64,000 nucleotides of DNA from an uncultured Anaerolineales bacterium (lineage in GTDB: Bacteria > Chloroflexota > Anaerolineae > Anaerolineales > UBA11858). The DNA is taken from NCBI GenBank assembly GCA_964419495.1, contig CAYQQX010000003.1, positions 4,943 through 68,942 of the forward strand. Direction: 5' to 3'. A program made the position numbers and the translations under genes. The notes beneath the pieces were generated by a model that worked only from the letters and a program-made list of their open reading frames with translations, did not search any database and was not told the origin of the DNA. Shown here piece by piece: positions 9,082 to 38,495 of the stretch. Positions within the stretch are counted from its first letter, which is position 1; each line of letters begins with the position of its first letter.

Positions 9082-9098
9082 TAATTCTCCATATTGAG

Positions 9099-18739: not shown

Positions 18740-18952
18740 AAAATCCTCCTTGCTAATCGATGCGAACAACTTTTGTTTTTAATCTTCGCTCTCAAATTTC
18801 CAATAAGACCTCCTCAGATATCTACACTTTTCCACTTGTGATCTTCTTTGATGCCACCACAATATTTAACTCATGTTACACACACGTAGCGAGGTTTCCC
18901 TGAGCTTGCGTAACATCAATATTTAAATTAGAAAAAGACCATAATAAAATAA

Positions 18953-19735: not shown

Positions 19736-22159
19736 ATGCAATCACATGCTCGCGTTGTAATTATTGGGGGTGGCATTATGGGTGTCGGCCTGTTGTACCA
19801 CCTGATCGAAGCGGGCTGGGATGATTGTGTGCTTATTGAAAAAGCTGAGCTGACTTCCGGCTCTACCTGGCATGCTGCTGGTCAATGTCCTAATTTCACT
19901 GCAGATTACAACATTGCCAAGATCCAACACTACAGCAATACATTCTATCCAAGATTAGAAAAATTGACTGGGCAGGCAACTGGTTGGCATGGCGTCGGTG
20001 GGATTCGTTTGGCAACCACGAAAGAAGAATTAGACAATTTCCGGCAAGTAGAGGGCATCGCAAAAAATGTCGGATTCCGTATGCAGATTATCAGCCCTGA
20101 GGAGATTCGACGGCTCAATCCCTTTGTATCCCTGGAAGGTGTACTTGCTGGTGCCTGGACACTAGACGATGGCTATGTTGATCCGGCAGGCGTTACCAAT
20201 GCAATGGCCATCGGAGCAAAAAACATGGGGGCAACGATTGTCCGCCATAATCAAGTTACCAATATCAACCTGCTCCCAAATGGGGAATGGGAAGTATTGA
20301 GTCAACAAGGGACAATCATTTGTGAGCATGTAGTCAACGCTGGCGGCTGCTATGCTGCTCGAATCGGCGCCTGGGTAGGTCTAGATCTTCCAATCGTCCC
20401 AATGAAGCACCAATATCTGGTCACCGAACCAATCAAAGAATTTATCGAGCGAGATGAAGAGATCCCCGTCATGCGTGATCCCTACCCCAATGCCTACTAT
20501 CGCCAGGAACAGCATTCAGGACTGATAGGCATTTATGAGCGCAGCGATACCCAGGAGGCCTGGTATGGTTCGCCAGGGCAGGATTGGGATTCAGAGAGCG
20601 AACTCTTTCCGGCAGATTTCGATATCATTATGCCCGGGCTTGAACGCGTCATGGAGCGCATGCCTTTATTTGCCGAAGCAGGGATTATGCGTGTCATCAA
20701 TGGGGCTAACACCCGCACTCCAGACCACAATCCGTTGGTGGGGCCCGCTCCTGGGCTGCGAAATTTTTGGCTCAGTTGTGGACAAAATATGGGGATTGGG
20801 CAAGGGGCTGGTGCTGGAAAATACTTGGCGCAATGGATGATGCATGGAGATGCTGACATTAACATGGTCGGCGTCGACCCGCGCCGCTTTGGACCTTACG
20901 CCGATCGAGAATACGCTCGCGCCAAAGCGCACCAAGACTTCAGCTTCATGTATATTCTGCGCCTGCCAGGTGAGGAGCGCCCCGCGGGACGACCAGCTCG
21001 CACCAGCCCATTGTATGCAAAACTAAAAGCCAAAGGCGGAAATTTCGCTGAGACCTTTGGCTGGGAACGCCCCAAGTGGTTTTCTCTGGATGGCCGTGAG
21101 GAAGAAAAAAGTTATCGGCGCAACAATATTTTCGAAGTGGTCGGTGATGAGTGCAGGGCGGTCCGCGAGCGGGTGGGCGTTTTGGACCTTTCCAGTTTCA
21201 CCAAGCACGAGGTGACCGGACCTGATGCTGTGGCGTTTCTAAACCGGGTGTTAGCGAACCGGGTATCCCAGCGGGATGGCGGCATTGTCCTGGCACACGG
21301 CTTATCAAACCAGGGTCGCATCCTAAGTGAATATACAGTAACACGCCTGGGCGAGGAACATTTTTACCTGCTCTCAGCCGCAGCCGCGAACATCCGCAGC
21401 AGCGATCAACTCGACCAAAGTAAACGCGATAATGAAGAAGTAATCATCGAAAATATCACCGAGGAATGGGGCACGCTGGTCTTGGCCGGACCTCGTTGTC
21501 GTGATCTACTCAAAAAAATCACAAATACGTATTTGACAAATGACCACTTCCCTTGGCTGATAGGAAAAGAAGTCGAGGTGGCCGGGGTGAAGCTGCGTGC
21601 GTTGCGCATCAATTATGTAGGCGAACTAGGCTGGGAACTCCACATGCCCATCGCACAGCTCGAATTCATCTATGATGCAGTTTGGGAAGCTGGCGAAGAA
21701 TTCGGCATCGCAGATTTTGGCATGTATGCCTTGAGCAGCCTGGGCAAAGAAAAAGCCTATTATTCATGGGGTATAGAGTTGATCAACGAGATCACTTTGA
21801 TCGAGGCCGGTATGCTACGTTTCGTGGACTTCGACAAAGGGGATTTCGTCGGAAGGGAAGCGTTGATACGTCGCCAACAAGAGCAGTTGGCCTGGAATAT
21901 TGTCTATGTAGAAGTGGACGCAGTGGATGCTGAGGTGCGCGGCAGTGAACCAGCGCTGGATGGTGATAAAGTAATCGGCGTAACAACATCGGGCGCATAT
22001 GGGTATGCCGTCAAAAAAAGCCTGGCCTTTGTCTATGTTCCCCCAGAATATGCTGAGCCAGGAACCACCTTCGATATTGAGATCCTCGGTCGTCGCCGTC
22101 GCGCGCAAGTGCTGGCGGAAGCGGCCTATGACCCTCGGAATAAACGTCTACGATCTTAG
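19736..22159 (+). CDS. Dimethylglycine/sarcosine dehydrogenase-oxidase-like flavoprotein (FAD domain + GcvT folate-binding domain)
   Basis: It is 807 aa and contains VVIIGGGIMGVGLLYHL, the covalent-FAD-type motif SGSTWHAAGQ, and the C-terminal aminomethyltransferase block INYVGELGWELHMP. Confidence 0.85.
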   Translation: MQSHARVVIIGGGIMGVGLLYHLIEAGWDDCVLIEKAELTSGSTWHAAGQCPNFTADYNIAKIQHYSNTFYPRLEKLTGQATGWHGVGGIRLATTKEELDNFRQVEGIAKNVGFRMQIISPEEIRRLNPFVSLEGVLAGAWTLDDGYVDPAGVTNAMAIGAKNMGATIVRHNQVTNINLLPNGEWEVLSQQGTIICEHVVNAGGCYAARIGAWVGLDLPIVPMKHQYLVTEPIKEFIERDEEIPVMRDPYPNAYYRQEQHSGLIGIYERSDTQEAWYGSPGQDWDSESELFPADFDIIMPGLERVMERMPLFAEAGIMRVINGANTRTPDHNPLVGPAPGLRNFWLSCGQNMGIGQGAGAGKYLAQWMMHGDADINMVGVDPRRFGPYADREYARAKAHQDFSFMYILRLPGEERPAGRPARTSPLYAKLKAKGGNFAETFGWERPKWFSLDGREEEKSYRRNNIFEVVGDECRAVRERVGVLDLSSFTKHEVTGPDAVAFLNRVLANRVSQRDGGIVLAHGLSNQGRILSEYTVTRLGEEHFYLLSAAAANIRSSDQLDQSKRDNEEVIIENITEEWGTLVLAGPRCRDLLKKITNTYLTNDHFPWLIGKEVEVAGVKLRALRINYVGELGWELHMPIAQLEFIYDAVWEAGEEFGIADFGMYALSSLGKEKAYYSWGIELINEITLIEAGMLRFVDFDKGDFVGREALIRRQQEQLAWNIVYVEVDAVDAEVRGSEPALDGDKVIGVTTSGAYGYAVKKSLAFVYVPPEYAEPGTTFDIEILGRRRRAQVLAEAAYDPRNKRLRS

Positions 22160-22179
22160 AACATCACCGCACTAACATT

Positions 22180-23454
22180 ATGAGGAACTTCTTTACTATC
22201 CAAAATGCTCACGCGCTGCATCCCGAAATTGTGAAATATTTTAAGCGCAATTTTTTCGTCAACGTGATGGATGCAGGTTTTTGGTTCTTTGGCGATAGTT
22301 TTGTAGCCGCGTATACCATATTGCCGGTATTCATGAGCACGCTCACAGATTCGCCCCTTTTAATTGGGCTGATACCAGCCTTGGAAGGAGCTGGCTGGTT
22401 TTTGCCACAAATATTTTTGGCCCGACATTTGGAAGGCAAGAGTCGACGTTTGCCTTTGGTTCGGGCTTTGGGAGCTCTCGACCGGCTGCCATTTTTGCTA
22501 CTGGCATTGAGTACTTTCTTCATCTCGATGATGGACACAAATTTGGCTATCGGATTGTTTTTAGCAATCTATGGGATCAAAGTATTTTCAGGCGGATTAG
22601 TGGCCTTGCCCTGGCAAGAGTTAATTGCCACCGTCATCCCTGTTTCTCACCGAGGGCGTTATTGGGGTACGGCATTAATTCTGGGAAAACTGATGGGGAT
22701 GATTGGCGCTGTACTGACTGGCTTCTTGCTAGTCAATTTTGCTTATCCAGTGAATTACGCATATATGTTTTTGATTGGTTTTGTTTGCGTGATGTTTTCG
22801 TATGTTTTCTTATACATGAATTTTGAACCCGCGATAGAGCGCCAGGCTCCGCAAGAAGAGATCCCAATCTGGGGGCGTATCACTGGAATTCTTAGGGCAG
22901 ATCATAATTTTGGGATGTATCTAGTAAATCGGGGATTCGTATTTCTGAGTTTTATGGGGTTGGGATTTATTACCGTTTATGGGATCCAGAAATTCAACCT
23001 GCCCCTTTCGTATTCAGCAGTTTTTACCGGCGTGATGCTGGTTTCTGAAATTGTGGGGTATGGGATTTGGGGAACAGTTGGGGATAAAATGGGATATAAA
23101 CGAGTCATTGAATACAGCAACGTTTTCTTGATAGTGGGATTATTTGCCATCTTAACAATTAAATCGGTCTGGGGGTTATACCTGGTATTTGGGATCATCA
23201 GTTTTGCCCATTCAGGGGAGTACATTGCCGATCAAAATATCGCTATGGAATTCGGGTCGGAAGCAAACCGGCCAATATACATTGGTATGTCTAAAACATT
23301 AACCGGTCCAGTCCTATTACTCGCGCCCCTGATTGGAGGGAGTCTGGTGAAAATTTGGGGATACCAAAGCATGTTTGCAACTGCCTTGATTGTTTCGACG
23401 ATTGCCTTCGTTATTATCAAATTCTTTGTAGTAGAACCCAGACATTCAAATTGA
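22180..23454 (+). CDS. MFS transporter
   Basis: It is 424 aa with about 12 predicted hydrophobic spans. It starts 21 nt after the preceding gene. Confidence 0.75.
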   Translation: MRNFFTIQNAHALHPEIVKYFKRNFFVNVMDAGFWFFGDSFVAAYTILPVFMSTLTDSPLLIGLIPALEGAGWFLPQIFLARHLEGKSRRLPLVRALGALDRLPFLLLALSTFFISMMDTNLAIGLFLAIYGIKVFSGGLVALPWQELIATVIPVSHRGRYWGTALILGKLMGMIGAVLTGFLLVNFAYPVNYAYMFLIGFVCVMFSYVFLYMNFEPAIERQAPQEEIPIWGRITGILRADHNFGMYLVNRGFVFLSFMGLGFITVYGIQKFNLPLSYSAVFTGVMLVSEIVGYGIWGTVGDKMGYKRVIEYSNVFLIVGLFAILTIKSVWGLYLVFGIISFAHSGEYIADQNIAMEFGSEANRPIYIGMSKTLTGPVLLLAPLIGGSLVKIWGYQSMFATALIVSTIAFVIIKFFVVEPRHSN

Positions 23455-23883: not shown

Positions 23884-24549
23884 ATGTCAAATCCAATAAC
23901 AAAAAAAGACAGAGCGTTTCGGGAAATTAAAAAGGCCATTATTGCCGGAAAGTTGGAATCAACAAAAATTTTCAGCATTGCCGAGTTGTCTGAAACGTTT
24001 GAGTACGGCAGAACACCCATAAGAGAAGCATTAGTAATACTCGCTTCAGAGGGATTGGTTGAACCTATTCCAAAATTAGGTTATCAGGTGAAATCCCTTT
24101 CTGTTCATGACATGCTAGAAATTTTCCACCTCAGAAGTATTCTTGAGGTTGAAGCAGCAGGGCTGGCAGCAGAGAAAATTACAGATGAAGATATTAGTTT
24201 GCTGGAAACGAACATCCGTTTAGAACAAGAATTAGTAATAAGCCTACAATCAGAAAAATTAACTCATTCATATGAGGATGCACATGCGCTAAATTTGAAG
24301 TTTCACCAAATCATCGCACGTGCATCTGGCAATAATCGTTTGGCCGGTATGGTGGAAAAGTTACTAAACGAATTGGAAATCGTGCTTGGATATGACCCAA
24401 AAATTGCAAGGGTCGAAATTGCTGCTGCGGCTGCAATACAGCATTATGAAATAATTGAAAGGCTGCGACGAAGAGATAAATCGGGTTCGGAAGAAGCCAT
24501 GAAAAAGCACATTGAGAATGCTAAAAATAATTCCTTGATTCGATTTTAA
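23884..24549 (+). CDS. GntR family transcriptional regulator (FadR/FCD-type C-terminal domain)
   Basis: It is 221 aa with the winged-helix region FREIKKAIIAGKL...IAELSETFEYGRTPIREAL and a helical C-terminal domain. Confidence 0.85.
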   Translation: MSNPITKKDRAFREIKKAIIAGKLESTKIFSIAELSETFEYGRTPIREALVILASEGLVEPIPKLGYQVKSLSVHDMLEIFHLRSILEVEAAGLAAEKITDEDISLLETNIRLEQELVISLQSEKLTHSYEDAHALNLKFHQIIARASGNNRLAGMVEKLLNELEIVLGYDPKIARVEIAAAAAIQHYEIIERLRRRDKSGSEEAMKKHIENAKNNSLIRF

Positions 24550-24610: not shown

Positions 24611-26077
24611 ATGGAAAAATATTCCAAAACACCTGAAATTATCTCGATTTCATCTCACCATAAGATTGAAATATTAAGTCCATCTGAAATTGACAGCCTT
24701 CGTAAGGGGACATACAAGCTATTAGCGGAAGTTGGGGTGTATTATCCTTCCAAGAAAGCGTTAACGATATTTGCTGAACATGGTGCTGAGGTTGATTGGA
24801 ATTCTAAGATTGTGCACATCCCCCCCGATTTGGTCGATAAAGCAATGGCAACTGCACCACGCAATATTGTTCTTGCGGGGCGTGAACCACGTTTTGACCT
24901 GACGCTGGATGGCAGTCGCTCATACCTGACAACGGATGGCTGCGGTGTGCATGTGATCGATTTGGAGACCCGCGAAAAACGAGCCTCGAGAAAGGCAGAT
25001 GTCGCCATGATGGCCCGCGTTGGTGATGCTATTCCATTGGTCAGTTTCTTCTGGCCATCGGTCAGCGCTCAGGATTTCGGAATAACTGCTCCTTTACATG
25101 AATGTCACGCTGGTCTAACAAACACCTTAAAACATGTTCGAGGCGGGACAACGGTATACCCTGAGCTAGCACCCTACCTGGTAGAAATGGCGACTGTGGT
25201 TGCTGGTTGTGAGGCTGAGCGGCGGAAACGCCCTCCAATTTGCGCCAATATCTGCGCAATTCCGCCCCTCAGTCATGATGAACATGGCATTGAAACCGCT
25301 TTGATTTATGCAGCCGCGGGCATCCCGATCAGTTTTATGGCAATGCCTAATATGGGATCAACTGCCCCGATGTCTGTTCTGGGGGCAATCTTGCAAGGGG
25401 ATGCTGAATCAGTCAGTGCGATGGTTCTAATGCAATTAGCAAATCCGGGTACGCCGGTATTTCATGCAATCATCACCTCGGTGATGGATCCTCGCACTGG
25501 AGGTTACATTGCCAGTATGCCCTTACCGTTGAGATTTATCGCGGTTCAAATGGCCCATGCTTGGGGTGTGCCCTGTCTGGGAGGCGGCACTTTCAGTAGT
25601 GATGCTGGTGACCTTGGTTGGCAGTCTGCTTTTCAAGGTGCATTTGGAGGCGCTCAAATCCCCCTGGCTGGGGGAGAAATATGCGGTTATCTGGGATTAA
25701 TGAATTCATCCACAACGCTTTATCCCGAACAGATCATGTTGGATGCTGAGATAGCCATGCATGTCTATGAAACCTATAAGGCATTTGAATTTAAGGATCT
25801 TGACGTAAACCTGGACGTGATAAAAGAGGTTGGTCCTCGGAACCATTTCCTACGCCAGAAACATACCCGAAACCACATGCGTGATTTTTATTATTCTCCC
25901 ATCTTCAATCAACACGATCAAGATGGTAATCTGCGAGAACCACGTGATGTCGCTCTCGAGAAGTTTAAGGAACTGGAGAAAAACCACCATCCTGAGCCAC
26001 TGCCTCAGGATGTGTTAAAAGAATTAGATAAGATCATGGATGCCGCGGATAAAAAATCATTGGAGTTAGGAATTTGA
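24611..26077 (+). CDS. MttB-superfamily methyltransferase (non-Pyl)
   Basis: It is 488 aa and shares the blocks of 11144..12601 and 55684..57144 (SFFWPSVSAQDFG, LHECHAGLTNTLKHVRGGTTV, PPICANICAIPPL, DPRTGGY). Confidence 0.88.
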   Translation: MEKYSKTPEIISISSHHKIEILSPSEIDSLRKGTYKLLAEVGVYYPSKKALTIFAEHGAEVDWNSKIVHIPPDLVDKAMATAPRNIVLAGREPRFDLTLDGSRSYLTTDGCGVHVIDLETREKRASRKADVAMMARVGDAIPLVSFFWPSVSAQDFGITAPLHECHAGLTNTLKHVRGGTTVYPELAPYLVEMATVVAGCEAERRKRPPICANICAIPPLSHDEHGIETALIYAAAGIPISFMAMPNMGSTAPMSVLGAILQGDAESVSAMVLMQLANPGTPVFHAIITSVMDPRTGGYIASMPLPLRFIAVQMAHAWGVPCLGGGTFSSDAGDLGWQSAFQGAFGGAQIPLAGGEICGYLGLMNSSTTLYPEQIMLDAEIAMHVYETYKAFEFKDLDVNLDVIKEVGPRNHFLRQKHTRNHMRDFYYSPIFNQHDQDGNLREPRDVALEKFKELEKNHHPEPLPQDVLKELDKIMDAADKKSLELGI

Positions 26078-26256
26078 TAGGGCAAAGTAGAAACAGCTTG
26101 AAATGGGAATTTCCAAAGGAGGCGAAAGTCTTGGTCATTGGAGGAGGGGTGGTCGGCTGCAGCGTTGCAAACCATCTCACTAAGCCAGGATGGAAAGACG
26201 TTATTATTTCAGAAAAAATCCAAATTTCGGCTGAACAATGTAAAAGAACCGAGTAG
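26074..26256 (+). pseudogene. Relic of the N-terminus of a DMGO-like flavoprotein
   Basis: Residues AKVLVIGGGVVGCSVANHLTKPGWKDVIISEK (about 26122..26217) align with [32 protein letters not shown] of 48467..50947. Similarity then stops and the frame terminates at 26256. There is no credible start or RBS. Confidence 0.6.
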
Positions 26257-26290
26257 CCAATTTGCTAGAATCAGATACAAAGGAGATCCG

Positions 26291-27460
26291 ATGAAAATAC
26301 TACTATTAGGTGTTGGGCTTCAGGGCAAAGCAACCATACATGACTTGGTCGGTAGTCCAGCAGTCACACAAGTCATTGCCGCAGATAAAAATTATGAAGA
26401 TCTCACCGCTTTCGTAGATACACTTAAGACCGATAAGGTCATACCTATACAATTGGATGTTCGTGATAAGGCACAAGTTGCAGAACAAATGCAGCGTGTG
26501 CAAGCCGTCATCGTTTTGTTGCCAAAAGAATTACGCCTGGATGTGGCCCGGCTAGCGGTTGAGAACGGGATTCATTTCATTGAAACATCGTATATATTGC
26601 CTGAATTTGTGCAGCTTGGCGCAGAAGCTAAAGCACGTGGGATAGCACTTCTTCCAGAATGTGGGCTAGATCCCGGGATCGATCTCGTGCTTGCGGGGCG
26701 CGCGATCAGGGAATTCGATGAAGTCCACGAATTACATGCATATGGAACTGGTGTCCCTGAACCAAAAGCAGCCGACAACCCGATAAAGTACAAGATCTCT
26801 TGGATTTTTGCCGGTGTACTGAGCGCCTATAATCGCTCTGCACGCTTTTTGAAAGGCGGGGAAATTGTCGACATAACCCCGGGCGAAATGTTTGACCAAG
26901 CGTATATTCACAATGTAGACATGGGTGACCTGGGTACAATGGAAGCCTACTACAATGGTGATGCTATCCAGTATCTGGATATTCTAGAAATTGCCGATAC
27001 CATTACCGACACTGGCCGGTATTCCATGCGCTGGTCAGGACACGCAGCTTTCTGGAAAAAGTTAGTCGACCTGGGATTCTTAGAAGAAGAGCCTATCCTT
27101 GTTGGGGAAAATGAAGTATCTCCACGGCAGTTTGTTCATGACCTCTTGGCTCCACAATTGCAATACGGACCAAAAGAAAGAGATATAGCTGGGCTTCGTA
27201 TCGAAGTTGTTGGTTTAAAGAATGGAAAATCTAAACGCGTCATATACCAGATGGTTGACCGCCGCGATTTGGAAACAGGCCTACTGGCTATGCAACGCAC
27301 CGTGGGCTTTACTGCCAGCATCGGTGCCCAAATGATCTTAAATGGACAGATCACAAAACGTGGACTCCTGACACCTACTCGCGATATTCCATCGGACATC
27401 TTAATTGAAGAATTGAAAAAACGAGGGATATCCATCCAACGGACAGAAAGTGACTCCTGA
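26291..27460 (+). CDS. Saccharopine dehydrogenase family oxidoreductase
   Basis: The ATG at 26291 follows AAAGGAG. MKILLLGVGLQGKA is the Rossmann start. I rejected the track's upstream extension from 26138. Confidence 0.7.
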   Translation: MKILLLGVGLQGKATIHDLVGSPAVTQVIAADKNYEDLTAFVDTLKTDKVIPIQLDVRDKAQVAEQMQRVQAVIVLLPKELRLDVARLAVENGIHFIETSYILPEFVQLGAEAKARGIALLPECGLDPGIDLVLAGRAIREFDEVHELHAYGTGVPEPKAADNPIKYKISWIFAGVLSAYNRSARFLKGGEIVDITPGEMFDQAYIHNVDMGDLGTMEAYYNGDAIQYLDILEIADTITDTGRYSMRWSGHAAFWKKLVDLGFLEEEPILVGENEVSPRQFVHDLLAPQLQYGPKERDIAGLRIEVVGLKNGKSKRVIYQMVDRRDLETGLLAMQRTVGFTASIGAQMILNGQITKRGLLTPTRDIPSDILIEELKKRGISIQRTESDS

Positions 27461-27586
27461 AAACAATAGCCGCAGTTCTTGGATTGCGGCTGTTCATGTT
27501 TGCTGCACCTGATTTTTTCTGGATAGCCTTTGTGATCATTAAAATTTTTGCAACGCTTCAGATATGCTATTCGATAGTTAATCAAT

Positions 27587-29947
27587 ATGACTACCACAAA
27601 CCAACCCCCACATCAGGACGATCTCCTTGAAACCCCAGCCCCAAATTTTTCCGACACGCAAGTAGGAGCTCTGGTCAAAAAGTTATTCGGTTTATCTGGC
27701 AACCTATCTCCTTTGGATAGCGAGAGAGACAAGAATTTCCGTATCAAAGTTGAGACGGGGGAGAAATATGTAATAAAAATCGCCAACAGTGCTGAGGACA
27801 CCGCTATCATTGATATGCAAATCAAAGCACTAGAACATATTGCTATAACAGACCCAGGAATACCTGTGCCTCAGGTATTATATTCTCTAAATGGGCAAGC
27901 AATTGAGCATGTCCAATCCGAAGATGGCACAAAACACGATGTGCGCGTACTAACCTACTTACCAGGTGCCTATCCTGAGTATGACCCTGCAGAGTTGTCG
28001 TTGCTACGCCCCATGGGTGCTTGCCTGGCAAGACTCGCTCGCAGTTTGCGAGGTTTTTTTCATCCAATAGCAAATTATGAGTTGTTATGGGATCTGAAAC
28101 ATACTTCTAAACTCAGGCAGTTTTTACACCACATAACTGATCCGGATCATCACGAACTTACCAGATACTTTCTGGATCGCTTTGATCTGAATGTGCTTCC
28201 CCAGATACCCAAGCTAAGGGCGCAGATTGTTCATAATGACTTAACGCTCGATAATATCGTTGTGGCAGAGGATGATCCGGGAAGCATTGTTGGAATTATT
28301 GATTTCGGGGACATGACTCACACGCTCCTGATCGTTGATTTGGCCACCACAATTGCACCCATGCTGCGCTGCCAGGATGATCTCCTGCGAGCAGCTGCAG
28401 AAGTTGTCGCTGGTTACCATAAAATAATTCCGCTTGAAGATGCTGAACTGAGCGTACTCTATGATCTGATCGCGGCTCGCTTGACAATGCTGAATGTCAT
28501 CGCTTACTGGCGAGTGACCCTTCACCCCAACAATCGAGAATATATCACTGGGGGCGTCGAAGAAACGTGGGCCACATTAAATGCATGGAGAGCGCTAGAT
28601 CCAGCAGATGTCACCAAGAAATTCTTCAGGGTTTGTGGTTTATGGGAAGCAGAGGAAGCCAGTCCGAGCCAAAAAGCGGAAAAAGAAACCCTTCAATCTC
28701 ATTTAACTCGTCGGATGCGCCTCTTAGGGTCCTGCGCTTATTTGTTCTACGACAATCCACTGCATATCGTGGACAGTGAAGGTGTCTGGCTACATGATGT
28801 GGATGGCAATCGATATTTAGATGCATACAACAATGTTTCCCATGTTGGTCACTGTCACCCCCATGTAGTAAATGCTATAACCAAACAGGCACGACGCTTG
28901 AATACAAGCACACGCTATATGCATGGGCTGATCCTCGAACTAGCCGAGCAAATCACAAATCGGATGCCAGAGCCTTTGAGTGTATGCATGTTTGTTTGTT
29001 CCGGATCAGAAGCCAATGAACTTGCCTGGCAGATGTCGCAACTAGTATCTGGCAACAATGGCGCACTAATTACGGAATTCTCGTATCACGGCAGCAGTAC
29101 GGCTACTAAACAGTTCAGCACCGAAAGTATCTCTCTTGAGAAATTGCCAGCGCACGTACAAACGCTGCTCGCGCCGACATCAAACACCACCTTCCACAAA
29201 CCAGATTCCGGCATCAGTGATGCAATCAGAGCCTTGGATCAAAAAGGCCATCAGCCGGCAATGCTGATCGTAGATACATCTTTTGTGAGTGATGGGATTT
29301 TCACATCACCACAGGGTTATCTCCAAACGCTCTTTTCAAAGACCCGGTCCGCTGGGGGATTATGTGTCGCAGACGAAGTCCAGGGTGGGTTTGGACGCTT
29401 CGGGGAGAATTTTTGGGGTTTTCAATATGATGATGTAATACCCGACATTGTGACTTTGGGAAAACCAATTGGCAATGGGCATCCCCTTGCAGCAGTAGTA
29501 ACCCGTCCAGAAATTGCTGAGGTTCTGGCCAAGGAAACGGGCTATTTCAGCACCTTTGGGGGGAACCCGGTTTCATGTGCCGCTGGGCTCGCTGTGCTGG
29601 AAGTGATTGAAAAGGAACAGTTGCAGCAAAATGCACATGAAGTAGGCCAATACCTGAGAAAAGGTTTAGTCCGATTACAAAAAGAATGTCCCGCGATTGG
29701 TGAATTGCACGGAGCGGGATTGCTCCAGGGCATTGATATCGTCACGCCTGGCGGCGAAGCTGATCCGAGATTGGCCGACCGCATCATGAATCATATGCGT
29801 TCAAATGGCGTTCTTATTGGAACAACTGGGAAAAATTACGACACACTAAAAATTCGCCCACCGATAGTATTCCAGAAGGAACATGTCGATATGCTGATAG
29901 CTGCTTTGAAGATGGCGCTGGGCATTCTATATACGGAGAAGAGATGA
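27587..29947 (+). CDS. Fusion protein: APH/HYKK-like small-molecule kinase domain + AGXT2L-type class-III PLP phospho-lyase/aminotransferase domain
   Basis: It is 786 aa. The N-terminal half has the kinase catalytic loop [12 protein letters not shown] and IIDFGDM. The C-terminal half has [15 protein letters not shown] and LNTSTRYMH, which resemble the NNVxHVGHCHP / LNTNSR blocks of ethanolamine-phosphate and 5-phosphohydroxylysine phospho-lyases. The PLP-lysine lies in [11 protein letters not shown]. Confidence 0.75.
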
Positions 29948-31395
29948 TCAACCAAACACCCCAACTAGAACCGGTTATTCCAGCCTATCAAATTCAGATT
30001 CTCAGTGATGAGCAACTGGAGAATTTTAAATCCAACACGTTTACAATCCTGGAAGAGACAGGTTTTCACTGTCCTTCTACGAGAGCATTGAAAATCTATG
30101 CAGAAAATGGTGGCGTAGTAGATTTCGACACGCAGATAGTTAAGCTATCACCGGAAGTGATCCTGGAAGCCCTTTCCCATGCGCCGCGTTACTACACCAT
30201 GGGTGGACGCACAGATTCATTCGATCTTGATTTAACGAAGGGAGTCACGCATGTATCTACCGATGGAACCGGGGCAAAGACCATCGACTATGTGACCCGA
30301 AAACTTCGCTCTTCCATCAAGGATGATGTTGCCAAATCAGCCCGGATTTCCGATTACCTGTCTTCGGTCAGTTTTTATTGGCCTATGGTCAGCGCACAAG
30401 ATCACCCGGTTTCCCCCTCACTGCATGAGTTAGATGCTTCCTTCAACAATACCCTCAAGCACGTCCAGACTCCGACCCTGGTGGAGGATATTTCGACACG
30501 CTATGCAGTGGAAATGGCCAAAGTTGTGGCTGGCAGCGAGGAGGAAATGCGGAAACGCCCTCCCCTCTCATTGCTGGTTTGCACAATTGCTCCGCTGGCT
30601 ATGGATGCTGAGAGTATGGACGCCGCATTGGTGGCAGCTGAGGCTGGAATCCCAGTGGGTTTTATGTCCATGCCCAACACAGGTTCTACTGGGCCCGCCA
30701 CACTAGCCGGGACGATATCTCAAGGTGATGCTGAGATTGTCTCAGCCATGGTCTTAATCCAAATGGCGTATCCTGGCGCACCCATATACCACTCCTTGAT
30801 GCCCGGCATGACTCACCCACGCACAGGAGCTTTCTACGGCCATAACAGCCACGTTTATGCCATTGGTGTTGAGTTGGCGCACATGTGGGGTGTTCCCACG
30901 CTGGCAGCAATGGGTGGCTCGGATGCCCATGAACTGGGTTGGGAAAGCAGCATGGCTGGCGGGAAGAGTCAGTTGCTGGGCGCGTTATGCGGCGCAGAAA
31001 CTGGTGCCGGAATGGGATTGGTGCGATGCAGCACCGTGCTATACCCTGAGGCACTGGTTTTGGAAAGGGAAATTTATCGTAATGTTTGCGACGCTACAGC
31101 GGGATTAGATACCAGCCCCGACCAAATGGCCCTGGATGTCATTCAAGCGGTGGGGCCGCGCGGCCATTTTCTCCGGGAAAAGCATACCCGAGAGTTTTTC
31201 CGCAAGTTAAACTTTTCAGATGTTGTATATGTTCCGGATACAGATGGAACATACCGCGACCCGCTTGAGGTTGCCAGAGAAAAAACCGATTGGATTTTGA
31301 AGAATCACCACCCAGAACCGTTGAGCGAAAACCAACAAAGTGAACTGACTCGGATTGTTGAAACAGCAGAGCGAGAATTATGTCGGGAGGATTGA
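29944..31395 (+). CDS. MttB-superfamily methyltransferase (non-Pyl)
   Basis: It is 483 aa. Its start overlaps the previous stop (ATGA). It is a close paralogue of 7639..9081, sharing QIVKLSP(D/E)VILEALSHAPRYYTMGGR and SFYWPMVSAQDHP. Confidence 0.88.
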   Translation: MINQTPQLEPVIPAYQIQILSDEQLENFKSNTFTILEETGFHCPSTRALKIYAENGGVVDFDTQIVKLSPEVILEALSHAPRYYTMGGRTDSFDLDLTKGVTHVSTDGTGAKTIDYVTRKLRSSIKDDVAKSARISDYLSSVSFYWPMVSAQDHPVSPSLHELDASFNNTLKHVQTPTLVEDISTRYAVEMAKVVAGSEEEMRKRPPLSLLVCTIAPLAMDAESMDAALVAAEAGIPVGFMSMPNTGSTGPATLAGTISQGDAEIVSAMVLIQMAYPGAPIYHSLMPGMTHPRTGAFYGHNSHVYAIGVELAHMWGVPTLAAMGGSDAHELGWESSMAGGKSQLLGALCGAETGAGMGLVRCSTVLYPEALVLEREIYRNVCDATAGLDTSPDQMALDVIQAVGPRGHFLREKHTREFFRKLNFSDVVYVPDTDGTYRDPLEVAREKTDWILKNHHPEPLSENQQSELTRIVETAERELCRED

Positions 31396-31618: not shown

Positions 31619-32647
31619 ATGTCGACATCAAAGGAACGAGTGTTTCAGGCTCTCAGGGGTGAAACACCCGATCAGATCCCAGCTGCACCTGCTTATCTGA
31701 TTCTCTTTCTGGCAGACTTCGAGCGCAACTATTACATCGAGCAATACCGTCAGCGGATGCGAGGACTCAGCCGCTATCCTGTCGACCACCAGGAGGATAC
31801 CCGCTATCGAGCGCAGGCTATCTATCAGGCTTACGGTATATTCAAGGATCGACCGGACTGGATGGAAATCGGGCAGGGGGCGAGCCGCTCCTGGGCTGAG
31901 AGAACTGAAATCGTTGATAAGGACGGTGTACTCCATTACGAAGACCAGCACACGGGCGCATGCCTACCCATGCACGCCTACCCGCTTCCCAGGGGTACTA
32001 TGGAGCACACATCCGAACACGATTCCACGAAGGATATCTGGGATACATCAGGAAAGATCCAGAGCGAGGAACAGGTTGATATTCGTCTGCCACTCCCTGA
32101 CCTGCATGCGATGCTGGAGCGGGGAGATTTTGACCTGCCGCGCCAGGTAATGGCCGACTATGGCGATTCAAAATTTATCACCACCATTCTTGACACACCC
32201 TTTTCTGACGCCTATGACGTTCTCGGTTTCAAGGGGCTGATGGTCATCCAACGCAGACGACCAGAACTCTTTCACTATCTCCTGGAGCGCCAACTGGAAG
32301 TCACAAAGAAAGTGATGGAGGTTTGGGCAAAAGTTGGTATTCATGGGGTCTATGTCGAGGAAGTTTTTACTGGGGCGGATATTATTTCACCCCGCGCTTA
32401 TGACGAGTTTGTCTTTGCCTACAATCAACCCTATTTTAAACATATGAGCGGCCTTGGATTACGGCCGATCCACTATATCTGCGGTGACGTGATCCCGCGC
32501 CTCGAGCGGATTGCTCAGCTCGACATCGCGGCCGTGGGAGTGGAGGAGAGCAAGAAGAAATTCGTGATCGAGCTTGAAGAAGTGGTGCGGCAGGTCGCCG
32601 GACGGGTAGCAGTCTTGGGTAATATTGATGCAGTGCGCTATGGATAA
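31619..32647 (+). CDS. URO-D / MtaA-MtbA family (methylcobamide:acceptor methyltransferase-like) protein, as terminated by TAA at 32645
   Basis: It is 342 aa and shows URO-D-family features: the N-terminal RVFQALRGETPDQIP, then ISPRAYDEFVFAYNQPYF, IHYICGD and VLGNIDAV. Confidence 0.7.
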   Translation: MSTSKERVFQALRGETPDQIPAAPAYLILFLADFERNYYIEQYRQRMRGLSRYPVDHQEDTRYRAQAIYQAYGIFKDRPDWMEIGQGASRSWAERTEIVDKDGVLHYEDQHTGACLPMHAYPLPRGTMEHTSEHDSTKDIWDTSGKIQSEEQVDIRLPLPDLHAMLERGDFDLPRQVMADYGDSKFITTILDTPFSDAYDVLGFKGLMVIQRRRPELFHYLLERQLEVTKKVMEVWAKVGIHGVYVEEVFTGADIISPRAYDEFVFAYNQPYFKHMSGLGLRPIHYICGDVIPRLERIAQLDIAAVGVEESKKKFVIELEEVVRQVAGRVAVLGNIDAVRYG

Positions 32648-32815
32648 AACGCATCTCTGGAAGATATGGCGGCCGAGGCAAACCGGCAACTGCGCATCGG
32701 TCAGGATGCACAAGGCTTTTTGCTCAGTACGGGAAGCCCCTTCCCGCTGGACACCAACCCGAGGTTGATTGATACGATGATTACCACCGCACACGCATAC
32801 ACATCAAAAACTTAA
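32648..32815 (+). other. In-frame continuation encoding the missing URO-D C-terminus
   Basis: It is in the same frame as 31619..32647, directly after the TAA. It reads NASLEDMAAEANRQLRIGQDAQGFLLSTGSPFPLDTNPRLIDTMITTAH, which matches the usual URO-D C-terminal pattern (G-F-I-L-S-T-G...P.DTP..N...M). Confidence 0.6.
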
Positions 32816-34274: not shown

Positions 34275-35447
34275 ATGCTTGACAGAGCGATAAAGATAAA
34301 GGATCAAATTATCTCTTGGCGGCGCGATTTCCACATGCACCCAGAGTTAGGGTTTAAAGAAACCCGTACCGCGGGGATAGTCGCAATAGCCTTGGATGAG
34401 ATGGGAATACGAGTGGAAACTGAAGTTGGAAAGACGGGTGTGGTCGGCCACCTGGGGGAAGGCTCCCCAGTGGTGGGCATTCGGGCAGATATGGACGCGC
34501 TTCCACTGCAAGAAGCCAATGATGTCCCTTATGCCTCTCAGAACCCTGGCGTGATGCACGCCTGTGGCCACGACGCCCATACGGCGATATTGCTGGGGGT
34601 TGCTAGCATTCTCTCGGAGATGCCTGGCCGGCCTCCAGGGGAGATACGGTTCCTCTTCCAGCCGAGTGAAGAGGATTGGGATGAAGAACTTAAGTCAGGC
34701 GCCACGCGCATGATCGAGGATGGCGCTTTGGAAGGTCTGGACGCGGTCATCGCATTGCACGTAGATGATAGTACCCCAACAGGACAAATTGAGATCAACA
34801 GCGGCAATGCTTCAGCAGCCGTAGATTCTTTTCAGGCTACCATCATTGGGCAGGGCGGACATGGAGCATATCCCCACGATACGGTAGACCCCACCTTTAT
34901 TCTCGCTCAGGTGATCAACGCCATTCATGGCATTCGGGCGCGGCGCATCAAGCCAATCGACCCGGCAGTCATCTCGATAGGGGCGATCCACGCCGGGCAT
35001 ACGAGCAATGTGATTCCTGATAGTGTAGAAATGATGGGCACAATTCGCAGTTTTGACACGGAGGTGCGTGAGCAGCTCTCGGAAGAGTTAGAAAAGGCAT
35101 TCGCCCTTACCCGCGCCTTTGGCGGGAATTACACACTTACCATAGAAAAGGGGTTCCCCTCCTTGTATAATGACTCCGAGGTGGTCGAACTCATCTGCCA
35201 GACGGCCAGTGAGATGTTAGGTGAAGACAAGGTAGCTACCTGCGAGGCGGAAATGGGCGCAGAAGATTTCAGTTATATGAGTCAGTTGGCCCCTGGGGCT
35301 ATGTTTTGGCTGGGCGTGAACATTGACGATACACCGCGACCCGCTCACAGCCCTACCTTCGACATCAATGAAGATGCTTTGCCGATTGGCGCGGCCTTGC
35401 TGGCTGAAGTCGCATGCCGTTTACTCAAATCCCCACCCCAGACATAA
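34275..35447 (+). CDS. M20D-family amidohydrolase (N-acyl-amino-acid / hippurate hydrolase-like)
   Basis: It is 390 aa and contains WRRDFHMHPELGFKE, ADMDALP and MHACGHDAHTAILLG. Confidence 0.85.
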   Translation: MLDRAIKIKDQIISWRRDFHMHPELGFKETRTAGIVAIALDEMGIRVETEVGKTGVVGHLGEGSPVVGIRADMDALPLQEANDVPYASQNPGVMHACGHDAHTAILLGVASILSEMPGRPPGEIRFLFQPSEEDWDEELKSGATRMIEDGALEGLDAVIALHVDDSTPTGQIEINSGNASAAVDSFQATIIGQGGHGAYPHDTVDPTFILAQVINAIHGIRARRIKPIDPAVISIGAIHAGHTSNVIPDSVEMMGTIRSFDTEVREQLSEELEKAFALTRAFGGNYTLTIEKGFPSLYNDSEVVELICQTASEMLGEDKVATCEAEMGAEDFSYMSQLAPGAMFWLGVNIDDTPRPAHSPTFDINEDALPIGAALLAEVACRLLKSPPQT

Positions 35448-35472
35448 TCTTCTATTCAAGAGAGACATATCT

Positions 35473-36936
35473 ATGAGTTCACGCAAGCCCAATATCCTGT
35501 TGATCTTCGTTGATAACCAGCCTGCGAACATGATGGGCTGTTATGGAAACGATGAGATCTTCTCACCCCATCTCGATGAATTGGCTTCCAAAGGGGTGCT
35601 CTTCCGCAACGCTTTCTGCCCCAATTCCATGTGCTCCCCTTGCCGGGCATCCATGCTCACCGGGCTTATGCCTTCACAGCACGGAATTCACACCTGGCTC
35701 GATGACTATCTTATGGATACCTGGCCCGAAGGTTATAACGCCATTGGCGAATTTGAAACCTTGCCGGAAATCCTAGCGGAACAAGGTTATCACACCGCCC
35801 TGATCGGGAAATATCATCTCGGGTTTGCAGATGAACCCCAAAACGGATTCAAGCATTGGGTTGTGATGGAACAAGGGACGATGGAATCGTTCTATGACGT
35901 CCCAATGATCGACAACGGTCACCGCCACATGGCCCCCGAACATTCGGTCGATTATTTCACCAGAAAATCGCTTGACTACCTTGACGAACATGCCAGCCCA
36001 AACGAGCCGCCTTTCTTTCTTTGTCTGACTTACAACGCCCCCTACGGAAATGTCCCGGATCCAGACCATCGCTACTCCCATCTGTATGCAGATTTACCGA
36101 TGAACTCGGTTCCTAGGGAAGGATTGAGTCCAGAACTCATTGATTGGATCTTGTTGTGCAAAGAGAAATATCCTGCTGAAGATTTCGCCTGGTACCGGCG
36201 GCTCGCGGAGCAGCCTAACAATTTACCTGCAATGCGGCGATTCTATTCACAGGTGAGCATGGTAGATGACGGTGTCGGGCAGGTGTTGGCGAAGCTGCAA
36301 GAGAAGGGGGTATTAGAAAATACCCTCGTCATCTATACCGCCGATCATGGCAAGTCGAATGGCCAACATGGATTTTGGGGGCACGGAGAAGATACCTGGC
36401 CTTCGAATATGCACCATTCAACCAATAGTATCCCGCTGCTGATCAGTTATCCAGGGTTCGCACAAGCGGGTCTGGAGGTAGACAATCTGGTAGGAACAAC
36501 CGATATCTTTGCGACGATTCTTGATCTTGCAGATTGCGAACTCGAGTCTCCTGAGCTTGTTTTTGGTCAAAGTTTTGGCACGCTACTTAGGGGCGAAACC
36601 ACGGTGTTTCGAGATGAGATTTTTATGGAACAAGAAGAGACTCGTGCAATTCGGACATCAGAGTGGCTTTTTATGAAATGTCTGGAAAATACCAAATATG
36701 GATTCAAGAATGAGTTATATGATTTGGTCAATGATCCTGATGAACGCAGGAATCTCGCGCAGCAGCCTGACTACGCCGATGTAGTCGCAAAGTTAAGTGA
36801 CCGCTTAGACGATTTCTTCTCTCAACATGCCAACCCGCGTTGGGATCTATGGAAGGGGGGGACCGTCAAATCCAACTCTACCCGACCTTTCTTGTGGGAG
36901 GAAGTTTGGGGAGACGATTGGAAGCCCGAATTCTAA
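35473..36936 (+). CDS. Sulfatase family enzyme, Cys-type, no signal peptide (copy 1)
   Basis: It starts at MSSRKPNILLIFVDNQ (ATG 35473; the track extension from 35323 is rejected). The formylglycine motif reads CSPCRASMLTG, and ADHGKSNGQHGFWGHG is present. Confidence 0.85.
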   Translation: MSSRKPNILLIFVDNQPANMMGCYGNDEIFSPHLDELASKGVLFRNAFCPNSMCSPCRASMLTGLMPSQHGIHTWLDDYLMDTWPEGYNAIGEFETLPEILAEQGYHTALIGKYHLGFADEPQNGFKHWVVMEQGTMESFYDVPMIDNGHRHMAPEHSVDYFTRKSLDYLDEHASPNEPPFFLCLTYNAPYGNVPDPDHRYSHLYADLPMNSVPREGLSPELIDWILLCKEKYPAEDFAWYRRLAEQPNNLPAMRRFYSQVSMVDDGVGQVLAKLQEKGVLENTLVIYTADHGKSNGQHGFWGHGEDTWPSNMHHSTNSIPLLISYPGFAQAGLEVDNLVGTTDIFATILDLADCELESPELVFGQSFGTLLRGETTVFRDEIFMEQEETRAIRTSEWLFMKCLENTKYGFKNELYDLVNDPDERRNLAQQPDYADVVAKLSDRLDDFFSQHANPRWDLWKGGTVKSNSTRPFLWEEVWGDDWKPEF

Positions 36937-36976
36937 CCACTTCAAAATGAAAATAACAGGATTTGAAGGGACCTAA

Positions 36977-38446
36977 ATGGCAACAAAAAAACCGAACATT
37001 GTGCTGGTCTATGTCGATAATCATCCCGGTGCTGTTATGGGTTGTGCCGGAAACGCTGAGGCTTACACGCCTAATTTAGATCGTCTTTCACAAGAAGGGA
37101 CACTTTTTACAGAGGCTTATTGTCCTAATGCAATGTGTTCACCTTGTCGGGCATCGGTTCTAACGGGATTAATGCCCTCACAACACGGAATTCACACCTG
37201 GATCGATGAGTATTATCAAGATGACTGGCCCGATAATTGGAATGCCATTAAAGAATTTGATACCTTACCGGAAAAACTCGCTCGTGAGGGCTACGATACA
37301 GCCTTAATTGGTAAGTACCATCTGGGCAACGCAGAGAGCGCCACTGATATATTTAAAAAATGTGTAACCATGCAGATCGGCCATGTCCAGTCATTTTATG
37401 ACAATGACATTATAGATTGTGATGAGAGATATAAGCATCCCGGACATTCCGTTGACTTTTTTACGGATAAAGCTGTTGAATATATCGATCAATGCAGTGA
37501 AGAAAATGAAAAGCCATTTTTTCTCTTTCTAACCTATCCCGCACCATACGGTCACTGGCCCTCGATTCAAGGTGAACCCGCAAACCGTTATGCAGATCGG
37601 TTTCGTGGCAGCCAAATGTTATCTGTACCCCGGGAAGGGCTTAGTAAGCAGGCGATTGCTTGGATAGCGATTCTAAATGAAAAAGGTTATGGCGATGAAG
37701 GCTATGATGTATTACTTCAGATCCCCAATGACCTTCCTTCGCTTCGCAATTACTACTCACAGATAAGCATGGTTGACGATGGTGTCGGCCGTGTTTTTGA
37801 TGCCTTAGAAAACAAAAATTTGGCTGACGATACGCTGTTTATATTTGCATCTGATCACGGCATGTCACTTGGACAGCATGGATTTTGGGGGCATGGGGAA
37901 GATACCTGGCCATCCAATACCCATCGTGAAGCAAATCATATCCCGTTAATCATTAAAGCACCTGATGATAGGAATAAGCAAAAGGTCGTAGATTCTCTGG
38001 TCGGCACAACCGATATATATGCCACAATTTTAGATTATGCCGGCTTGGAGCTGCCATTTGCTAAAGAAAGCCCAGCAAGAAGTATGAGACCATTAATTGA
38101 AAGTGATAATTCAGTTTGGGATAATGTCAGTTTTATGGAGCAAGAGGAAACTCGGGCGATTCGCACATCTCAGTGGCTCTTCATGCTGCGCATCCAAAAC
38201 ACAGAATATGACTTCAAACCCGAGCTGTATGATCTGGTGGCTGACCCAGGTGAGCGGATAAACCTGGCACAAGATCCCGAATATGCCAAAGTGGTAGCAA
38301 AGCTCAGAGCCCGCCTGAATGAATTCTTTTCAGATTTCGCCAATCCCCGCTGGGATCTCTGGAAGGGAGGCACGGTCAAGTCTAATTCCACGCGGCCCTT
38401 CTTGTGGCAGGAAACCTGGGGAGACGACTGGGCCCCAGAGTATTAA
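36977..38446 (+). CDS. Sulfatase family enzyme, Cys-type, no signal peptide (copy 2)
   Basis: It is 489 aa and contains KPNIVLVYVDN, CSPCRASVLTG and SDHGMSLGQHGFWGHG. Confidence 0.85.
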   Translation: MATKKPNIVLVYVDNHPGAVMGCAGNAEAYTPNLDRLSQEGTLFTEAYCPNAMCSPCRASVLTGLMPSQHGIHTWIDEYYQDDWPDNWNAIKEFDTLPEKLAREGYDTALIGKYHLGNAESATDIFKKCVTMQIGHVQSFYDNDIIDCDERYKHPGHSVDFFTDKAVEYIDQCSEENEKPFFLFLTYPAPYGHWPSIQGEPANRYADRFRGSQMLSVPREGLSKQAIAWIAILNEKGYGDEGYDVLLQIPNDLPSLRNYYSQISMVDDGVGRVFDALENKNLADDTLFIFASDHGMSLGQHGFWGHGEDTWPSNTHREANHIPLIIKAPDDRNKQKVVDSLVGTTDIYATILDYAGLELPFAKESPARSMRPLIESDNSVWDNVSFMEQEETRAIRTSQWLFMLRIQNTEYDFKPELYDLVADPGERINLAQDPEYAKVVAKLRARLNEFFSDFANPRWDLWKGGTVKSNSTRPFLWQETWGDDWAPEY

Positions 38447-38495
38447 GTCAGCTTTCTTCATGTGTAGCATATTCTTTGAAACAAGAGAGGAATCC

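Follow-up and report, generated by a model that had tools for sequence, protein, structure and literature searches.

Why should a gene that joins a small-molecule kinase to a phospho-lyase-type enzyme lie between genes of the MttB methyltransferase family? The question is raised by a 64,000-nucleotide stretch from an uncultured Anaerolineales bacterium (contig CAYQQX010000003.1, positions 4,943 to 68,942 of the forward strand), here called the window, in which the fusion gene occupies positions 27587–29947 on the + strand. On balance, the product of this gene is probably both an amino-alcohol kinase and an O-phospho-amino-alcohol phospho-lyase, a bifunctional enzyme that was recruited into methylamine-catabolic islands for deamination after demethylation. 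We infer both activities, the sequence of steps and the substrate from the domain identities, catalytic residues, clade and gene context described below. As an architecture, the kinase/phospho-lyase fusion has been catalogued before and is not novel. What is specific here, as judged by sequence comparison, is its context, a distinct two-domain Anaerolineae clade amid methylamine-demethylating genes, and the fusion is a candidate for the deamination step still missing when marine Anaerolineae break down a hydroxylated methylamine completely.

Domain organisation of the fusion protein

The reading frame at 27587–29947 is uninterrupted and its product has 786 amino acids. An earlier first-pass annotation, made from the letters alone, had described a single open reading frame (ORF) of this length uniting an APH-type domain with a class-III pyridoxal phosphate (PLP) domain. 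Pfam bears this out, with APH at residues 42–278 (2.5e-24, 86.8 bits for a cutoff of 23.2) and Aminotran_3 at residues 392–778 (2.2e-71, 241 bits). The motifs quoted in that annotation were all located, HNDLTLDN at residue 216, IDFGD at residue 238, an 11-residue block at residue 415 and LNTSTRYMH at residue 438, and they align with the corresponding blocks in the Arthrobacter protein A1RDF1 and in human ETNPPL. How often the fusion occurs in databases had been raised as a check: a large protein collection holds more than 100 full-length homologues that share both domains at 67–81% identity, the named ones from Anaerolineales or Chloroflexi, and the frame is therefore no chance ORF.

In the full-length AlphaFold2 (AF2) model, with a mean predicted local distance difference test score (pLDDT) of 88.8 and a predicted template modelling score (pTM) of 0.56, two domains are joined by a flexible linker. 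The APH-fold kinase domain comprises residues 1–353 (27587–28645) and the class-III PLP domain of phospho-lyase type residues 366–786 (28682–29944). The 12 residues between them (354–365; 28646–28681) are predicted to be disordered, with pLDDT below 50, and sit where a Peptidase_M23 domain is found in a longer, 1022-residue paralogue of the same genome.

The lyase-type domain

The C-terminal domain was compared by phmmer with all sequences of the PDB. Its best match was A1RDF1 (5g4i, 3.4e-101), followed by human ETNPPL (6tor, 4.5e-89), whereas the next chain after these phospho-lyases, GABA aminotransferase, scored 5.3e-46, a drop of more than 40 orders of magnitude. A Foldseek search with the AF2 model gave the same ranking, with TM-scores of 0.92 for 5g4i and 0.90 for 6tor. 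The Schiff-base lysine of the class-III fold, Lys626 (codon 29462–29464), and Asp596, of the class of aspartates that contact the pyridine nitrogen, are invariant in an alignment of 34 homologues reaching down to 33% identity. The resemblance to mammalian phospho-lyases noted in the first-pass annotation thus holds in both sequence and fold: the domain groups with A1RDF1 and ETNPPL, far from the transaminases. These comparisons support the assignment well, since no transaminase, racemase or decarboxylase of the fold comes as near to the domain as the verified phospho-lyases do. Identity with PbfA, the (R)-1-hydroxy-2-aminoethylphosphonate ammonia-lyase, was rejected, the score on model NF049939 being 187.6 bits against a cutoff of 525.

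The kinase domain

The hallmarks of an APH-family kinase are present in the N-terminal half. Besides the Pfam match above cutoff, these are the ATP lysine Lys64, the HxDxxxxN or Brenner motif (H216-N-D218...N223) and the DFG-like segment D239-F-G-D242 with its metal-binding aspartate. Among the 34 homologues, at 33–81% identity, D218, N223 and D239-F-G-D242 are invariant, H216 is invariant or nearly so, and K64 is nearly invariant, being conserved in at least 90%. The domain matches positions 6–348 of the NCBIfam model PRK06148 with 281 bits; the next-best model, alternative homoserine kinase, reached 2e-13. Modelled alone, the domain has a pLDDT of 93, and its Foldseek neighbours are the amicoumacin kinase AmiN, the type-II homoserine kinase 2ppq, the aminopropanol kinase 6ef6 and also 6sui. 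6ef6, among the nearest in fold at TM-scores of 0.71/0.77, is also the top PDB match by sequence, albeit a weak one (E 0.0013). Protein Atlas returned only generic 'phosphotransferase' clusters. APH was the only Pfam kinase family matched by the fusion, Choline_kinase not being among the hits, and a genome-wide search for a PF01633-type choline kinase was empty in this 92%-complete, 5.0-Mb genome. The earlier description of the domain as a small-molecule kinase agrees with this predicted intact APH fold near type-II homoserine kinase and aminopropanol kinase.

Judged from residues and models, both halves look catalytically competent, which makes kinase followed by phospho-lyase chemistry the natural reading.

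Relatives of the fusion and the long paralogue

A three-domain form, APH followed by Peptidase_M23 and a class-III aminotransferase, is catalogued in the NCBIfam models NF004799 (PRK06148) and NF004800 (PRK06149). The window protein remains below both whole-protein cutoffs (729.6 against 1128 and 570.8 against 973) because it lacks the central M23 domain: Pfam found APH and Aminotran_3 only. Its lyase domain matches positions 581–1008 of the PRK06148-type model. In a maximum-likelihood tree of lyase domains, the orthologues with 61–81% identity form one Anaerolineae clade (support 100 in the Shimodaira–Hasegawa-like approximate likelihood ratio test, SH-aLRT; stem 0.6), apart from the branch in which the three-domain forms fall together with the long paralogue of the window genome. 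The tree comes from a quick IQ-TREE search; one row (L032_orth) was disregarded as an ordinary transaminase with an end branch of 2.6, and the L031 entry labelled 'split' represents an orthologue with a frameshift, located on a contig of 5 kb. In Steroidobacteraceae, kinase and lyase are encoded by adjacent separate genes, an arrangement which argues for consecutive steps, and fusion or adjacency of the two is conserved across phyla.

The long paralogue is a canonical APH–M23–lyase protein of 1022 residues (genome G000, contig C45:24719–27742; locus L025:8399–11464) that passes the PRK06148 model with 1296 bits against 1128; M23 is also present at locus L062. Within the genus, the long form occurs in 11 of 13 genomes and the short form has a patchy distribution. 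The orthologue of the long paralogue lies convergent and adjacent to an MttB gene in five genomes of the genus.

Conserved methylamine context

The fusion has the neighbours that the first-pass annotation gave it: a Sacchrp_dh-family gene and an MttB gene (24611–26077, +) upstream and a second MttB gene (29944–31395, +) downstream. The translational coupling to the latter could be read directly from the sequence, the TGA of the fusion overlapping the ATG of the MttB gene in the ATGA at 29944–29947. Orthologues of the fusion, at 61–81% identity, were collected from representative genomes, relatives of the window genome and metagenome contigs. This gave 17 independent loci (L numbers below) with usable flanks, which were annotated by Pfam and by BLAST against the window proteins.

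Within 10 kb of the fusion orthologue, an MttB gene was found at 13 of the 17 loci, a DMGDH-like gene at 11 and any of MttB, DMGDH-like or corrinoid gene at 15. A Sacchrp_dh gene lay within the same distance at eight loci, directly downstream at four of the 17, and an aldehyde:ferredoxin oxidoreductase (AOR) lay within 5 kb at three. Only one of about 55 more distant homologues had an MttB neighbour. These included two-domain proteins (Actinomycetota, Chloroflexia, Bacteroidota), split pairs (Steroidobacteraceae) and three-domain proteins (SAR324, Rhizobiales), and no substrate clue came from their neighbours, which belong to unrelated families (SDR, branched-chain ABC transporter, DapB, GcvT-like, GH97, glucokinase, M81, Ku). 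Since at most about 10% of the genome lies within 10 kb of an MttB gene (23 matches in 5 Mb) and at most about 2% within 10 kb of a DMGDH-like gene (about four full-length, GCV_T-bearing genes), the association is far above chance, with the reservation that the genomes are related and not independent. The proposed link to MttB demethylation, for which the frequency of the MttB neighbourhood had been named as a check, is therefore backed by the comparison of loci: it persists at 15 of 17 despite shuffling, and the distant homologues are without it.

Gene order varies widely between the 17 loci, yet three themes recur. The first is a block of MttB5/8-type gene, fusion, Sacchrp_dh and MttB6-type gene (L035, L037, L100), of which the window is a rearranged version with a different Sacchrp_dh placed upstream; L026 carries the genes of the block reordered. 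The MttB gene at 24611–26077 is of MttB5/8 type (Pfam MTTB 3.1e-64; 74% identical to the window MttB at 55684–57144), and in L035, L037 and L100 the fusion is immediately preceded by an MttB8-type gene. The gene at 29944–31395 is of MttB6 type (3.9e-47; 75% identical to the window MttB at 7639–9102), and its orthologues (77–82%) share a cluster with the fusion in the same three loci and in L026. A GntR/FCD regulator (23884–24549, +; by Pfam) heads this plus-strand block; its 74% orthologue adjoins the fusion in L026, and a GntR gene is found upstream in L035 and L037.

The second theme places a major facilitator superfamily (MFS) transporter, a DMGDH-like gene, a DAO gene and an MttB7-type gene beside the fusion (L026, L027, L030, L034, L099). 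In the window, the corresponding DMGDH-like FAD/folate N-demethylase, DMGDH_a (19736–22159, +; Pfam DAO, FAO_M, GCV_T and GCV_T_C), has orthologues of 82–84% beside the fusion at all five loci, and the MFS transporter (22180–23454, +; Pfam MFS_1) has orthologues of 66–74% adjoining it in L026, L027, L034 and L099. A corrinoid (B12-binding) methyl-carrier protein is encoded at 18092–18769 on the − strand (Pfam; NCBIfam MtgC-like, 9.4e-65). In L020, the gene immediately before the fusion orthologue is a corrinoid gene, and in the 3-Mb genome G022, which has only two MttB genes, the orthologue still stands between a corrinoid protein and an MFS transporter.

The third theme is that of aldehyde enzymes directly 3' of the fusion, ThiS–AOR in L001 and Sacchrp_dh, an iron-type alcohol dehydrogenase (Fe-ADH) and AOR in L102. 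The AOR that the first-pass annotation had named as a possible aldehyde sink is present in the window (1598–3481, −; tungsten type, Pfam AFOR_N and AFOR_C), and its orthologues (59–60%) lie 0.5–3.6 kb from the fusion in L001/L028 and L019; the AOR that follows the fusion in L102 is a more distant relative. With AOR, or Fe-ADH and AOR, directly downstream in some relatives, the idea of an aldehyde sink gains support.

Proposed reaction sequence and substrate

Quaternary amines, among them choline, carnitine, betaines and methylated lysines, rank with the main carriers of organic carbon and nitrogen in the sea and are precursors of methane and trimethylamine. MttB enzymes remove a methyl group from quaternary (or tertiary) amines, and DMGDH-type enzymes demethylate tertiary and secondary amines; together, their substrate ranges could supply the fusion with a primary amino alcohol. 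In the sequence that we propose, N-demethylation by MttB with the corrinoid protein and by DMGDH-type enzymes would leave a hydroxylated primary amine for the fusion to deaminate. The APH-fold domain would use ATP to phosphorylate the hydroxyl adjacent to a terminal CH2-NH2. The class-III PLP domain would take up the primary amine as an external aldimine and eliminate phosphate, and hydrolysis of the released enamine would yield ammonium and an aldehyde, as in the reactions of HYKK with PHYKPL or ETNPPL. As the PLP lyase requires a primary amine, it would act only once all N-methyl groups are gone. The aldehyde would then pass to AOR, an alcohol dehydrogenase or a Sacchrp_dh-type enzyme.

The neighbours offer hints as to the substrate. 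A small aldehyde, for example acetaldehyde from ethanolamine, is suggested by the Fe-ADH and AOR genes that follow the fusion in relatives. The window neighbour at 26291–27460 (+; Pfam Sacchrp_dh_NADP and Sacchrp_dh_C) is saccharopine-reductase-like, with PDB matches to saccharopine reductase 1e5l (2.8e-37), human AASS (2.8e-35) and PH1688 (1.9e-22), and suggests aminoadipate semialdehyde from 5-hydroxylysine. It is only 25% identical to the Sacchrp_dh found 3' of the fusion in relatives. The latter more closely resembles carboxyspermidine dehydrogenase, which likewise joins an aldehyde to an amine. A search of the 92%-complete genome for EutB, the ethanolamine ammonia-lyase, gave no hit. With low confidence, we place ethanolamine from choline-type compounds first as the possible substrate. 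Only slightly less likely is 5-hydroxylysine derived from hydroxylated (trimethyl)lysine, on a par with a group that comprises 4-amino-3-hydroxybutyrate from carnitine, 1-amino-2-propanol and 2-hydroxyputrescine.

With MttB- and DMGDH-type enzymes, the fusion and the aldehyde enzymes combined, marine Anaerolineae could conceivably possess an undescribed, largely oxygen-independent route for the full mineralisation of a hydroxylated quaternary amine, for instance choline or diatom-derived delta-hydroxy-trimethyllysine, an idea that we put forward with some reserve. In the MttB-family pathways known to us, one methyl group is removed and the remainder excreted. Should the proposed reading be correct, MttB-rich Chloroflexota would obtain nitrogen and a two-carbon or larger aldehyde without ethanolamine ammonia-lyase, and the bacterial kinase/phospho-lyase fusion, a large family, would have its first physiological role. 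The block of MttB5/8-type gene, fusion, Sacchrp_dh and MttB6-type gene represents a compact protein set.

Alternative explanations

Several observations weigh against a role of the fusion in post-demethylation deamination. The hints from neighbouring genes conflict, Fe-ADH and AOR pointing to one substrate and the saccharopine-reductase-like gene to another, and the enzymes assayed so far, stand-alone A1RDF1 and the animal proteins, lie outside the Anaerolineae clade. In the window, a terminator-like hairpin of 13 pairs (27465–27494, +; found by consensus scan and reading of the sequence) parts the fusion from the upstream genes in the gap after Sacchrp_dh, so that the fusion and the MttB gene at 29944 may form a transcription unit of their own. 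The URO-D/MtaA-family gene downstream (31619–32815) carries an in-frame stop. Loci L018 and L029 are without methylamine genes within their 14-kb contigs. Finally, the genomes of the relatives are rich in MttB, with up to 26 per genome, and since they are also kin, the loci are not fully independent.

Some of these points would fit an enzyme of general amino-alcohol catabolism (of ethanolamine or hydroxylysine) or of nitrogen scavenging that merely shares a rearranged amine/peptide island and has no link to MttB. The island also contains peptide ABC importers, peptidases, agmatine deiminase, sulfatases and transaminases, which would suit such an enzyme as well as L018 and L029 do, and the long paralogue adjoining MttB in several genomes of the genus shows the MttB density of these genomes. 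We nevertheless consider this explanation unlikely: the association holds although the genes have been extensively reordered, it concerns particular MttB subfamilies and DMGDH-like genes that are themselves rare (about four per genome), and it is retained in G022 with its two MttB genes.

A different order of events is suggested by Eubacterium limosum, in which MthB, a member of the MttB family, demethylates phosphocholine and not choline and depends on MthK, the kinase adjacent to it; the authors point out that an acid group is present on the other MttB substrates known (Jiang et al. 2025, PMC12155760). Since MthB works on phosphocholine made by MthK, an order with the kinase first and the lyase last is possible: a hydroxylated quaternary amine would be phosphorylated (choline, for instance, to phosphocholine) to provide an acidic handle for MttB, demethylation would proceed on the phosphorylated compound, and the lyase would act at the end on the phospho-amine stripped of its methyl groups, such as phosphoethanolamine. 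The translational coupling of the fusion to one MttB, its position between two MttB subfamilies in several genomes and the empty genome-wide search for a PF01633-type choline kinase would all suit this order. The kinase, however, is orthologous to that of the PRK06148-type fusions (281 bits), it is assigned by Pfam to APH and not to Choline_kinase, and it has IDFGD where choline kinases show a motif of their own, as judged by profile models and motifs. Moreover, in most other phyla the kinase–lyase pair occurs without any MttB, which suggests that the two domains act one after the other. We thus regard a kinase-first pathway as quite improbable and retain deamination after demethylation as the preferred reading.

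Least credible of all is an ordinary omega-transaminase (or racemase, or PbfA-type lyase) joined to an unrelated antibiotic or protein kinase: although Pfam and NCBIfam name the C-terminal domain only 'aminotransferase class III' and many transaminase models match it (1e-45 to 1e-68), the two verified phospho-lyases outscore every transaminase, racemase and decarboxylase by far, the PbfA model stays well below its cutoff, and the link to the kinase by fusion or adjacency is conserved across phyla.

Further features of the window and of related loci

The window island comprises eight MttB genes and a ninth at its edge, the whole genome having 23 MttB matches. It holds three of the genome's approximately four full-length DMGDH-like genes together with the corrinoid protein, the MtaA-like gene and the AOR. 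The latter shares a minus-strand operon with a DAO oxidase, agmatine deiminase, four MttB genes and a class-III aminotransferase (3497–4813, −), which passes the NCBIfam cutoff for GntE, a guanitoxin-biosynthesis transaminase (561.7 against 525 bits). This operon hints at the catabolism of a methylated guanidino or diamine compound. Three tandem sulfatases (35323–39962, +) score about 150 bits on the choline-sulfatase model, for which the cutoff is 433, and are therefore not evidence for choline; arylsulfatase fits better, also below cutoff. No informative NCBIfam match was obtained for the carboxylesterase, which is likewise not used as evidence for choline.

Directly after the MttB gene at 24611–26077 lies the decayed remnant of a DMGDH-like FAD-binding N-terminus (26062–26190, +), which reads KVLVIGGGVVGCSVANHLTKPGWKDV in the frame of 26062, ends in a stop and matches the N-termini of the DMGDH-like genes at 48467 and 57165. 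It is in another frame than Sacchrp_dh and ahead of the start at 26291, and suggests that an MttB–DMGDH pair was broken when Sacchrp_dh and the fusion arrived at the present site. The Sacchrp_dh frame had been listed as 26138–27460 with a TTG start, which is probably wrong as judged from the sequence; the start at 26291, with the Rossmann motif MKILLLGVG, is likelier.

The gene at 31619–32815 (+) is the sole URO-D/MtaA-like methyltransferase gene of the block, as identified by Pfam, NCBIfam and read-through translation. The C-terminal part of the family continues in the same frame past the TAA at 32645–32647; gene decay, an error in the sequence or stop-codon read-through could each account for this. 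In L026, the orthologue (82%) has an unbroken frame of 406 residues.

Among related loci, L100 contains an extreme MttB array, with nine MttB genes, two Sacchrp_dh genes, one SDR gene and the fusion on one strand over about 20 kb (L100:1767–22144). In L020, whose genome has two MttB genes, two ORFs of 331 and 389 residues without a Pfam match (L020:5551–7712) lie directly upstream of the corrinoid, fusion and MFS genes and may be an unrecognised methyltransferase pair. Several MttB matches in relatives have exactly one in-frame TAG, some scoring up to 640 bits on the Pfam model, and could be pyrrolysine-type trimethylamine methyltransferases; examples are G026:C494:1950–3449, G008:C16:23080–24534, G007:C22:16101–17564, G003:C88:1836–3299 and G021:C76:2493–3947. 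Window DNA was present in eight sequencing runs, all marine or seawater DNA metagenomes from two studies, several of which may be the source of the assembly; none of the eight was an RNA run.

Comparison with known systems

Both folds and the proposed two-step chemistry are shared with the animal enzymes HYKK (AGPHD1) and PHYKPL (AGXT2L2) or ETNPPL (AGXT2L1). These, however, are separate proteins with no link to corrinoid-dependent demethylation, whereas the window enzyme is a single chain. Bacterial fusions of two and three domains reportedly pointed the way to the assignment of the human enzymes in 2012. The 2012 work (Veiga-da-Cunha et al., J Biol Chem 287:7246) is cited in the part of PMC12138971 that deals with gene fusions revealing enzyme functions, and also in PMC5714238 and PMC8154272. 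Among bacterial enzymes, the O-phosphoethanolamine phospho-lyase A1RDF1 of Arthrobacter aurescens TC1 (5g4i/5g4j) is 40% identical to the C-terminal domain over 419 columns and shares with it the blocks NNVxHVGH, DEVQxGFGR and GKPxGNGHP, but it is a stand-alone protein of 446 residues without a kinase domain.

In the three-domain PRK06148/PRK06149 fusions, both end domains are homologous to those of the window protein. These forms carry M23, their lyase domain belongs to a different major branch of the tree, and the tie to MttB and DMGDH-like genes is found only in the short Anaerolineae clade. The mycobacterial aminopropanol kinase 6ef6 is near in fold to the N-terminal domain and likewise an APH-fold enzyme with a small vicinal amino alcohol as substrate, and we take it to work with a class-III phospho-lyase in the mycobacterial aminoacetone/aminopropanol microcompartment. 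It differs in being only 17% identical and encoded by a separate gene, in a microcompartment locus without MttB.

The coupling of MthK with MthB is, to our knowledge, the sole functional and genomic partnership described between a small-molecule kinase and an MttB-family methyltransferase. A full-text literature search found no published proposal linking MttB with a phospho-lyase or with ethanolamine, and neither Chloroflexi nor aminotransferases are mentioned in the supplement text of PMC12155760. The MthK–MthB–MthC–MthA choline:tetrahydrofolate methyltransferase system (PMC12155760) resembles the window in that a kinase is coupled to an MttB-family enzyme and a corrinoid protein for a hydroxylated quaternary amine. 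MthK, however, is a choline-kinase-type enzyme without a lyase domain, whereas the window kinase is of PRK06148 type and has one. Likewise, the E. limosum pathway ends with excreted dimethylaminoethanol, whereas the lyase domain of the window protein would imply full demethylation followed by deamination. If this holds, the fusion and its MttB neighbours would constitute a second kind of kinase–MttB partnership after MthK–MthB.

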